Origin: Harriotta raleighana
Taxonomy: Eukaryota
DNA: 64,000 nt
NCBI GenBank assembly: GCA_050575255.1
Contig: JBNZDD010013726.1
Location: 8,498,302 to 8,562,301, forward strand
Reading direction: 5' to 3'
Part shown: positions 1 through 4,724 of the stretch, piece by piece
Layout of the letters: every line of letters begins with the position of its first letter
Position numbering within the stretch: position 1 is the first letter of the stretch
Program-made: the position numbers and the translations under genes
The notes under the pieces: model-generated
Told to the model about the DNA's origin: nothing
The model's database searches: none
What the model saw: only the letters and a program-made list of their open reading frames with translations

Positions 1-617
1 ATTTGTGATTCGAAATCAGATAAAATGTGGCAGTATGTAGTATATAACATGAAAATACCTAGCTAGCCTAACACAGACATACAATAAAAATCTTAAAGGT
101 AAAGAAAATATCAATAAAACCATCACTAAAAGTGAAATTTCACTACCTATACAATCCAATGTACAAAAAACTCTCTAGTACAGTATAGATATACAATTTC
201 AGCATTGCACTTCATGAGTTTTACATAAGGAAACAGTTTCTTACATTGAATAGGGACACTGTATCAGTTAAAATTATAAATGTGAGATATTTAAAATGTG
301 TAGTATATTCTACTCTTAGCGTTTGGCAACAAAACTGTGACACGTTTTAAAATTGTCCCACATTTAATTCAAGTGTCACAGGAACATATGAAATGGTGAG
401 GTATAGATGGCTGTCTTGTATAGACTTCAGACATCAAAGCAGAATGGACGATGAGCAGTCTGAAATGCGGCCTAAGAAATACAGTATCAACACTAGTTGA
501 ATTACAAGAATATTTGCAAGTTCTCCTGCCCTGCTCCCGCACCTCTCTTTCGCTTGCTGCAAATGGACTAGAGGGCAGGTTCTCGAAAGATCTTCTCATT
601 TCTTTGACATCTTTTGC
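1..617 (-). other. INPP5A: Terminal exon / 3' UTR of the INPP5A-family gene; its 3' end is not defined and may lie outside the window
   Basis: T-rich tract and CAG acceptor at 618-640; AU-rich downstream sequence; ATTAAA variant signal at 368-363. Confidence 0.75.
568..617 (-). CDS. INPP5A: Alternative C-terminal coding segment in the terminal exon, (G)KRCQRNEKIFREPAL*, used if the internal donor at 808 is chosen
   Basis: Acceptor tgtggcattcacag|GC at 618/617. The phase-1 junction with CAG|gtaaac (exon end 809) restores a GGC codon, and TAG lies at 570-568. Resembles a GKRCQR- tail I recall for a mouse Inpp5a isoform (unverified). Confidence 0.65.
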
Positions 618-764
618 CTGTGAATGCCACACAAAAAAAATTCAACACCGCAAGTTAGGTAATAAAGCTGACAGAAATATAAGAGAGTTAACATGTCAAT
701 TGAATACTGAAAAGAACATGGATGAATAGTAAAAGAAAAGAAAACATTAATATTTACCACCACA

Positions 765-845
765 TCACTGCACCACACAACAGTTGCGCATATTTGCATT
801 AGGTTTACCTGCCCCAGCAGCTATTCGAAAGAACAGGAAGACAGG
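765..845 (-). CDS. INPP5A: INPP5A-family last coding exon of the CAAX isoform (exon 15 equivalent), PVFLFFRIAAGAGKPNANMRNCCVVQ*; the exon extends to 758
   Basis: Acceptor ttttgtgcag|CCT; TGA at 767-765; donor GTG|gtaaat with the intron starting at 757; CVVQ farnesylation box as in human INPP5A. Confidence 0.96.
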   Translation of the reverse strand, partial: PVFLFFRIAAGAGKPNANMRNCCVVQ

Positions 846-2291: not shown

Positions 2292-2360
2292 CTTGTGGTC
2301 CCCCATGCAAACATTTGGCCCCATGTTGTCATAGATAACTGACTTCTCATCATTTTCTGC
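2292..2360 (-). CDS. INPP5A: INPP5A-family coding exon (exon 14 equivalent), AENDEKSVIYDNMGPNVCMGDHK
   Basis: Acceptor tgttttacag|GCA and donor AAG|gtaaag; 69 nt; GPNVCMGDHK is diagnostic of INPP5A. Confidence 0.97.
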
Positions 2361-2689
2361 CTGTAAAACAGAGATCACTTTCTTTACAGACAGAGTGGCT
2401 ATTCACATAAGGATCCCTTCACAATTGCTCAGCTGCAAAGACAAATATTTAGAGCCAGTGAGAAAGCAATCTACAAGAGTTTCAACAAACAAGAGGAGAT
2501 GGAAGGCCAACCTTTATGTGGGTCTCTGCAGAATGCCACAAACTACATACAATTTGCTGCAGCTTTTGTACACTTGGGATAATGCACTATGTGGAAATAA
2601 AATGCCCTTATCCCTAAACTGAGGTAAGCTTCAGAGCATCAATTATACAAAGGGATACATAGTTCACAAAAAAAACTTTAGGATTAATA

Positions 2690-3066
2690 ATATTAATAAT
2701 ACCAATAATCCTTACATTTGATATAGTACCTAACCACATTTTCTAGACGGATCAAAGCACTTTGCACAGTAAAGTGAAATGATTGCATATTTTTGGGGTG
2801 AAATGTGCTCCCAATTGTGCACAGTAGTGTCCCACCAAACAGTTGTGGATTGAATGAGCAAATTATTATTTATTTATATTTATTTTGTGAAGGGATTATC
2901 ACCCCTGGAAAAGTGATCTGCCAATTGACTAACAAACAGGTTTCTACTTACTGAGAGGTAAACAGATGTGTAGACTAAGGAACCTTGCCTAACATTTCGC
3001 CTTGTGCAGGAATCCTCTCACTTGAGAGACAAGAGTGTTAACTAAAGTACTACATTACAAGACTCC
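2690..3066 (-). mobile_element. tRNA-derived SINE, degenerate near-full-length copy
   Basis: Reverse complement of the family at 39142-39460: (TAA)n tail with ccttacatttgatatag, core aattgtgcacagtagtgtcccac, head remnant ctacattacaagactcc. Confidence 0.7.
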
Positions 3067-3539
3067 CTGTAATGATTTCCTTGCTCTAACTTCTGCAGTG
3101 TCTTATTCATTGCTTATTCAATCTCTACAAAATACACAGTCACTACACTTTACAACAAAATTCCAGATTTGAAAAGAGTTGTTTAAATTAATTGTTGTAC
3201 CATATTAAAAGTTGGGATTCTATTTGCAGCATATAATTGTTTTAAATTCTACTACTTTCTATTAATCAAAGTGATCTAGGTTTAATTAAAAATTAAATTA
3301 TTTTACGTATTAGCAAAGATAATCATTTGATTTGGTATTGCACCTTTCACATCGGGAAGACGTGTCAAAGAGAAGGATTTACTGTAAAGTGAAGCGAATG
3401 TGCATCGATAGGTAAATGCGGCAGTCAATTTGCGCACAGCAAAATTTCACAATTTTGAAGAAAGGGACCAATTTTATCGCATAGATTTCTGACCAGGACT
3501 CCAGTCAAAACTTGCTTCTGTATTAAAATAGGCTTACGG

Positions 3540-3697: not shown

Positions 3698-4724
3698 TCT
3701 TGTAGTGGTCCTTGTTGTATTAAAATGAGTGGATCTAACTAATCAATATTTACTCCTCTTTCCCTCCTCATAGAACGTTCGCATTCACCTGAATACTAAA
3801 AATATAAATAGAATGAATAAACTATTCCTCCTACAAACATTGGAAAAAATAAAATCCTATCAATAATATCAAAATCTCTGGAAATAAATAATTATTACTC
3901 TATTAATGTACATCAACAGTGGAAAACCGATATCACTAGTGTGCATCAATATTCAAGCATAATATTTTTGAAGTAAATTCAGCACAGGCTTTTTAAAAAT
4001 ATATTTTACTCTTACTAATATTCCTGTCAATATTTGCCCTCAGCAGTAGTGGTTTTGCTCCAATAATGTGACAGTTTTCCCCCCTATTCTAGCCGTCAAA
4101 TGGGAGGAACTTTCGAGGGAATGTGTGCTATACCATCAACGCCATATTGTCTCATAAACTGAACTGAAGAACAGAAAGGTTAGTCTTTAAAAATTCATGT
4201 AATGTTCCTAAAAATACCACAAACTTTTAGAAGTCAACATTATAACATGATGATATTAGTTCTACTTGTACTCCATCCAATTTATGAAATTCACACCCTG
4301 ATATTTAAGACAGAAACACCCAGCATGCTTATCTTTGAAAATGAACAGCTTCAACAGAAGGCGAAAATGCCCAGACTGAAAGTTAGGTCTTGAAGCAAAT
4401 TTTGAAAGTAGGGGTGGGGATATGATGGAAGATTGTCTGAAGATTGGCATCCACAATGGGACACCAGAACTGGGGGATGGTGGGGGGGGTGTCTGGGCGG
4501 TGGATGGCAAGAAGAAGACCAGTGTTTGAAACAAGTAAACAAGATATTGTGACATTTGACAATATTTGAACTGTGTAAATATTGAAGAAAGCAAAAATAT
4601 GCATATATGGAACACCCAACTGAAACCTCTAGAACAACAACAACTTGCACTTTTATAGCGCCCTCCAAGCCAACTAATAACTAAGCTTGAGGTGTTTCCA
4701 AAAAGGCCAAAAGCTTTTAAATGT

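Follow-up and report, generated by a model that had tools for sequence, protein, structure and literature searches.

C-terminal targeting signals can be switched by splicing, as in CDC42. In K-Ras A and B, according to the available text of PMC13524398, alternative 3' splicing changes the membrane anchor and leaves the catalytic core intact, as it would in INPP5A; K-Ras, however, exchanges signals of the lipid type, whereas INPP5A would likely exchange its lipid anchor for protein docking, by means of a donor that lies within the penultimate exon. INPP5A determines how long IP3 lasts and ends IP3 calcium signals, and it has been studied as a single farnesylated protein, with work on Purkinje-cell disease (PMC7046734) and on GNAQ/11-mutant melanoma, in which it is a farnesylation-dependent weakness (PMC12450637, PMC13524398; available text). 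For the human enzyme, the available text of Onken et al. 2025 (PMC12450637) reports that C408 is palmitoylated and C409 farnesylated, and that the C409S variant is lost from membranes, appears in the nucleoplasm and has a weaker damping effect on calcium oscillations. This agrees with a preliminary sequence-only reading of the DNA analysed here, which had stated that farnesylation targets INPP5A to the membrane: its loss takes the human enzyme off membranes. That part of the paper treats a single C terminus ('splic' occurs 0 times in it). The human CCVVQ is identical to one of the two endings encoded at our locus, whereas the alternative form lacks both cysteines.

A second C terminus is on record for the mouse. 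The supplement of Liu et al. 2020 (PMC7046734), in its available part, describes an isoform B of 422 aa with another C terminus and expected PCR products of 272 and 221 bp; isoform B was undetected in cerebellum and prefrontal cortex, and no function is assigned to it there. The PCR product of isoform B is 51 bp shorter, which is the same 51-base offset as between the two donors described below, and the reverse primer, when translated, gives the alternative ending found in rodents. The mouse isoform B tail differs from the tail described below in being frameshifted and without the conserved ending, and the word 'farnesyl' is absent from the available main text. The idea that the rescue construct of that study was the CAAX-less form, its primer ending at the isoform B stop, was rejected as unproven, since isoform A would be amplified too and B was undetected in brain. 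Within open-licence papers and bioRxiv we found no description of a CAAX-less or PDZ-binding form of INPP5A, a scope beyond which older subscription papers may cover it; the available text of PMC10834251 and PMC7555182 says nothing about an alternative isoform. The CAAX-less isoform is thus already annotated, without a function, and what appears to be new is a predicted PDZ-ligand ending shared with invertebrates.

The window, by which we mean the whole stretch of 64,000 nucleotides of Harriotta DNA analysed, contains nine coding exons on the minus strand, from 63284 to 758, that join into one open frame; the 5' exons of INPP5A lie outside it. The joined frame carries the motifs GDFNFR and PSWCDRIL, instances of GDxN(F/Y)R and P(S/A)W(C/T)DRIL, which we take to be the 5-phosphatase catalytic motifs, and exon numbers 15 and 16 are presumably those of human INPP5A. 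The PF22669 domain was found in relatives, and the profile matches solved 5-phosphatases. The features of the locus are as follows, all on the minus strand, with a slash marking the splice point.

63284-63232, 59717-59598, 44322-44238, 27594-27499, 27399-27325, 17372-17299 and 10875-10764 (minus strand, spanning 10764 to 63284): seven upstream catalytic-domain exons.
2292 to 2360 (minus): preceding exon, 69 bases, terminating in GDHK.
809 to 845 (minus): shared part of the penultimate exon, with the last catalytic-domain beta-strand, together with the base that opens the split Gly codon.
801 to 811 (minus): internal donor CAG/GTAAACCT, at residue 16 counting from the D of DHKP.
758 to 808 (minus): 51-base exon extension encoding the lipidated tail, with the C-terminal CCVVQ of INPP5A at 782-768, TGA at 767-765 and 7 UTR bases before the downstream donor.
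750 to 760 (minus): downstream donor GTG/GTAAATAT, intron beginning at 757; a 140-base skip is seen in 4/4 runs of a relative.
618 to 757 (minus): last intron, 140 bases from the downstream donor or 191 from the internal one, with a branch-point-like CTAAC at 658-654.
568 to 617 (minus): first part of the last exon, which belongs to the 3' UTR when the CAAX form is made and encodes 16 residues in the internal-donor form.
571 to 591 (minus): terminal motif IFREPAL, to be compared with IFRET(T/A)L in sharks, amphibians and birds and [IL]F[KR]ETxV in invertebrates; Pro stands for Thr at position -2.

The top match of the window is a Callorhinchus milii model, with 95% identity even across a translated intron. 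In a tree of 45 rows the window gene falls inside a single jawed-vertebrate INPP5A clade (support 100/99), its nearest rows being Callorhinchus (94-95% identity) and elasmobranchs (90-91%); the chondrichthyan fork has support 83/99, with one long unnamed row falling inside it. Since it is placed with Callorhinchus and elasmobranchs in one jawed-vertebrate clade, the gene is, by phylogenetic placement, the INPP5A ortholog and no paralog. It had been suggested that this copy might be a paralog and that the switch would then predate the gene duplication; we rejected this, as the tree follows the species tree without a separate paralog clade and near full-length matches are divided by an identity gap (about 76-88% versus 50-55%). 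One further segment, 51618-51562 on the minus strand, matches an extra exon of one Callorhinchus model (P0002); it has no counterpart in a second model (P0427) and is dispensable for the open frame, and the extra exon is likely a modelling artefact.

The exon at 845-758 translates to PVFLFFRIAAGAGKPNANMRNCCVVQ, which is closed by the TGA at 767-765. It contains two donors 51 bases apart, the internal CAG/GTAAAC, whose intron begins at 808, and the downstream GTG/GTAAAT, whose intron begins at 757; both share the acceptor AG at 619-618, so that the last exon begins at 617. The 809>617 join is in phase (split Gly codon, G/GC) and translates to GKRCQRNEKIFREPAL, which ends at the TAG at 570-568. 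Both donors, the acceptor and both tails are exactly as the sequence-only reading had stated them. When the 20 GTs between 845 and 620 were scored against the U1 5' end, the two donors were the best matches with 8/11 each, the next best reaching 6. The predicted U1 duplex is -8.3 kcal/mol for the internal donor versus -5.3 for the downstream one, and the eight constitutive donors of the gene range from -5.3 to -12.6. Under the rule of 50 bases for nonsense-mediated decay, neither form is a predicted target: only 7 bases separate the CAAX stop from the last junction, and the stop of the alternative form lies in the last exon. The sequence G(T/C)AAA occurs at each donor and again where the last exon begins (808-804, 757-753 and 617-613), from which aligners move the junction by 5 bases and from which Gly-Lys opens both isoform tails. 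An open frame at the acceptor is in itself common, since 179/407 acceptor-like sites of the window give at least 16 open codons in the same phase. We therefore rejected the open frame as evidence for the switch, and the case beyond chance rests on cross-species conservation; the presence of the full motif at 1/407 acceptor-like sites is a post-hoc count and was not taken as support either.

To place the switch point within the fold, we used the AlphaFold model of the catshark protein (mean pLDDT 91). The beta-strand encoded by the shared part of the penultimate exon corresponds to E389-395 and is the last strand, ending at 395; the switch point is at residue 400, and residues 402-415 are disordered (pLDDT below 50). 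Because the last strand ends before the switch point and 402-415 are disordered, both forms keep the catalytic domain and expose the tail. The window gene thus encodes a predicted IP3 5-phosphatase with an intact catalytic domain in both splice forms.

The alternative tail was then followed across vertebrates. The exon-15 anchor is present in 231/265 proteins (34 are without it), of which 162 have a CAAX ending and 69 a non-CAAX ending. Our tail table comprises 66 named alternative-tail rows and 4 unnamed ones, with unrelated endings and same-species repeat models left out; most rows are automatic gene models and related to one another, and are not independent counts. RefSeq automatic INPP5A isoforms, often labelled X1, encode the tail in sharks, rays, teleosts, lungfish, amphibians, reptiles, birds and some mammals, whereas it is present in 0/4 Callorhinchus and 0/3 human models examined. 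Examples are the tails of catshark (AKRYQRNEKIFRETAL), perch (GKCCQRGEKIFREAPL), tree frog (GKRCQQNEKIYRETTL), cuckoo (GKRCLRNEKIFRETTL) and macaque (GKRCQRHERTLREPSL). The tail is exactly 16 residues long in 58/66 named rows, with the stop position kept in those 58, and of these, 53 have E at -3, 52 have L at 0, 49 have I at -6, 45 have F or Y at -5 and 45 have R at -4. A CXXX ending occurs in 0/70 alternative-tail rows. The tail had been described as a short basic one that leaves a soluble enzyme; the loss of the CAAX box holds, but the net charge is only +3 versus +2 for the CAAX tail, on which account a 'polybasic tail' was rejected, and the resemblance of its end to a PDZ ligand had been missed. 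In muroid rodents a frameshift lies just before the conserved motif. The rodent isoform that the sequence-only reading had mentioned is real and of the CAAX-less type (a hamster model ends in GKRCQRLERILERPPCSSVSNSSS, and mouse isoform B is the 422-aa form), but its tail is frameshifted and degenerate and has lost the conserved ending. As a separate observation, the tails of pipefish and seahorses (P0034, P0055, P0069, P0081, P0233) end in C-E-A-P-L/M, with Cys five from the end. Prenylation signals of five residues exist as a concept, and this ending is possibly one of them.

Constraint on the tail was assessed at the level of codons. Bird bases are fixed almost fully (2-4 solutions) by two frames, the tail frame and that of exon-skip models in another frame, the paired models possibly coming from different species of one group. 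Between the window and birds, 12/16 residues are identical in the tail frame versus 5/16 in the shifted frame of the same bases, and 8 of 13-15 or 10 of 15-16 differences fall at third codon positions. Random placement of the same changes gives P of 0.00025-0.0014 in the comparison with passerines and no more than 0.0001 in that with galliforms; among birds alone the test has little force (P 0.04-0.08). The lagomorph tail keeps 3/16 residues with 13 non-synonymous codons, that is, no constraint. The tail without a CAAX box is genuine, and its codons have been constrained from chimaera to bird. The proposals that the GKRCQR frame would show codon-level constraint and that an ancient alternative 5' splice site removes the CAAX box both hold up, the former with P at most 0.0014 for window versus birds and none in lagomorphs, the latter in that the frame is conserved across jawed vertebrates.

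RNA of the chimaera lineage is represented by four contig sets of a close relative, from four of 22 listed runs, which we guess to be RNA and whose contigs drop rare variants. The 845>2292 join is found in 4/4 sets, as is a 140-base skip that corresponds to 758>617 but is drawn 5 bases off, an offset for which a single changed base at 616 would account. Absent is the 809>617 join among the listed joints (15 of 56) of these four RNA-like sets, and a contig of each of the four runs passes the internal donor unbroken. As contigs drop rare variants, these samples either lack the internal join or have it as a minor or tissue-restricted form; we infer that the internal donor is used in the chimaera lineage and that the alternative form is restricted to tissues outside the brain. 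In one run (X4), contigs break on either side of the 845>2292 join (at 845-847 and 2292, with depths of 1869, 1620 and 760), a pattern that points to a branching path, for example through an intron 14 left unspliced. In other vertebrates, full-length alternative-tail proteins are encoded on Logan contigs of 1.8-3.4 kb (P0071, P0085 and P0230, which are teleost-type and known only from Logan contigs); these contigs must be spliced RNA. Logan-derived P0193 likewise carries the internal junction of other vertebrates, and in the bullfrog 18 contigs have the alternative form and 100 the CAAX form. The internal junction is thus present in RNA of other vertebrates, namely teleosts and a frog.

The conserved part of the tail is its last seven residues, I-F-R-E-x-x-L. 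Class I PDZ ligands follow the rule X-S/T-X-hydrophobic (PMC7138185, available text), and a class I ending is present in all elasmobranch (6/6), amphibian (12/12) and sauropsid (6/6) rows, 24/24 of which end in I-F-R-E-T-x-L. These endings, R-E-T-x-L in shark, frog and bird and K/R-E-T-x-V in invertebrates, resemble the class I motif RRETQL of HPV16 E6 given in the available text of Amacher et al. 2020 (PMC7138185). In contrast, the rule is followed in 0/26 teleost (mostly A-P-L), 0/1 lungfish and 1/15 mammal rows, and the Harriotta copy, with R-E-P-A-L, departs from the class I motifs of that paper by the Pro at -2. The close relative keeps Pro at -2 and has Thr at -1. The window tail still offers Leu at position 0 with a free C terminus, in a segment that is disordered in the catshark model.

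We favour, with a probability of roughly 0.6, a reading in which INPP5A switches between a CCVVQ lipid anchor and an unlipidated 16-residue scaffold tail of the PDZ type. The downstream donor yields the CCVVQ tail and with it the lipid anchor; the internal donor would replace CCVVQ by the 16-residue tail, a form presumably without lipid, whose last residues would act as a PDZ-type docking motif, so that a lipid or a protein scaffold would decide where the same IP3 5-phosphatase is placed. Where a lineage has Thr at -2, the tail ending is likely a PDZ ligand that docks on a scaffold, whereas the Thr-to-Pro change in chimaeras likely weakens class I binding; we would rather not expect class I binding by the Harriotta copy on its own, and the chimaera copy may be mostly a soluble enzyme or may have changed its partner. 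Several points weigh against the switch between lipid and scaffold: the E-P-A-L end of the Harriotta copy and the Pro of its relative, the scarcity of class I endings in teleosts and mammals together with the decayed lagomorph and muroid tails, the CAAX junction of the relative's four assemblies without 809>617 among the joints listed, the lack of the tail in the Callorhinchus and human models and of isoform B in the two mouse brain regions (PMC7046734, available text), the possible convergence of short motifs, and the fact that G/GT is also possible at an acceptor.

The alternative that survives best is that of the sequence-only reading, namely that use of the internal donor does no more than free the enzyme into the cytosol or nucleoplasm, the tail being a cap that lacks the two cysteines and stops in the last exon. 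Non-farnesylated human INPP5A indeed behaves in this way, being off membranes and in the nucleoplasm and damping calcium oscillations less (PMC12450637, available text), and the variation at -2 (T, A, P), the drift of the tail in mammals and the departure of the Harriotta copy from the class I rule all fit a soluble enzyme. In chimaeras and mammals the alternative form may indeed be largely soluble. A neutral cap, however, needs neither I-F-R-E-x-x-L nor a fixed length from chimaera to bird, and the same ending is found in snail, scorpion, fly, copepod and flatworm homologs. As a general account we consider it unlikely, though it deserves to be kept in sight.

The invertebrate homologs bear on the age of the switch. 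The best 150 of 1168 representatives were analysed, of which 147 were new and 105 reach DHKP; removal of 8 vertebrate-type tails left 97. Among these 97 homologs from the best 150, 25 end in CXXX and 19 in E-[ST]-x-hydrophobic, versus 0.17 expected. Of the 19, 17 carry K or R at -4, 12 carry F at -5 and 16 carry I, L or V at -6, all at positions outside the rule by which they were selected. Named endings include RVFRETSV in a snail, RIFRETTV in a scorpion, IFKETAV in a flatworm and MLETSV in an octocoral, with others in moth, fly, copepod and weevil; the octocoral ETSV hints that the putative PDZ ligand is older still than bilaterians. In Littorina, Centruroides and Pectinophora, the long and short isoforms of one gene part 16 or 17 residues past the D of DHKP, at the codon split by the internal donor of the window, and the long forms end in CPCVVL (snail), SNCIIV (scorpion) and KCTS (moth, not a strict CAAX box); a copepod pair diverges at another place. 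At this codon, Gly followed by a codon beginning with A, the signature of reading through G/GT-A, is present in 24/26 CXXX forms versus 6/19 ETxV forms (Fisher P 5e-5). The donor architecture that these invertebrate genes would have is read from proteins only.

A choice between lipid and scaffold is thus likely common to snails and scorpions and old among bilaterians, and descent of the vertebrate switch from a bilaterian ancestor would follow from such a history. Rather than by descent, a functional vertebrate switch could have arisen separately and the invertebrate likeness could reflect convergence on a common PDZ motif, with which it agrees that only seven residues align, that invertebrate tails measure 38-366 residues from DHK versus 31 in vertebrates, and that a jawless-fish or amphioxus form was not identified; but the same switch codon and the same read-through signature recur, and the match reaches -4, -5 and -6, past the PDZ rule (scorpion IFRETTV versus bird IFRETTL), which leaves separate origin improbable. 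The full historical proposal is that a switch older than the split of protostomes and deuterostomes set CAAX read-through against an [IL]-F-[KR]-E-T-x-[VL] scaffold tether, and that the scaffold arm persisted in sharks, amphibians and birds while teleosts and chimaeras rewired it and mammals let it decay; we hold it tentatively, at slightly under even odds. Under this bilaterian-old history, work on mouse and human would have missed the scaffold arm because it has decayed in mammals. Among the strong targets through which Drosophila ELAV acts on the choice of poly(A) sites is 5PtaseI, with a Kd of 24 nM (PMC11551757, available text), and ELAV control of its 3' end could govern which tail neurons make.

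Palmitoylated splice forms are known for small GTPases, and the alternative tail might by the same token still be a membrane anchor, through a palmitoylated Cys beside basic residues. Cys indeed occupies tail position 4 in 48/58 rows, with Lys and Arg on either side; but the residue is Tyr in 6/6 elasmobranch rows, invertebrate counterparts are without such a Cys near the end, and the net charge is only +3, so that a second anchor of this kind seems very improbable. Splicing noise at a cryptic GT, the peptide being conserved through RNA-level conservation of the 3' UTR, would agree with the failure to see the join in the relative's four assemblies (15 of 56 joints listed) or in mouse brain (PMC7046734, available text), with the conservation of further UTR blocks and with the existence of bird exon-skip models in another frame, but it appears largely refuted by the codon test, the constraint being specific to the frame and visible at third positions, with the stop kept in 58/66 rows and the form assembled as the main path in teleost and bullfrog RNA contigs.

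A switch between lipid and scaffold would have consequences for calcium signalling. A conserved lipid-free second form would place IP3 breakdown under the control of splicing. PDZ scaffolds hold receptors and phospholipases, and if the tail is bound by such scaffolds, IP3 would be broken down next to them. The alternative form would be insensitive to farnesyltransferase inhibitors. Older biochemistry describes a soluble pool of the type I enzyme, for which the alternative form would offer a genetic source.

The end of the gene shows further features in the window. Skipping of the penultimate exon (2292>617) opens a frame of 82 codons at 617-369 on the minus strand, a join that is used by bird, turtle, rabbit and elephant models; its product is likely non-functional, because the last beta-strand is dropped and the frame is less conserved than that of the tail. 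Two 3' UTR blocks, at 464-444 and about 404-369 on the minus strand, are conserved in a shifted frame as FRLLIVH in birds and IPH..CS[CW]D in elephant and bat, and are likely regulatory elements. High-copy repeats lie near 1504-1670, 2673-3173 and 4510-4676. Far from the switch, Rfam gives two weak tRNA matches on the plus strand, at 28418-28490 and 39146-39216 (41.4 and 33.6 bits), which are likely tRNA-derived repeats.
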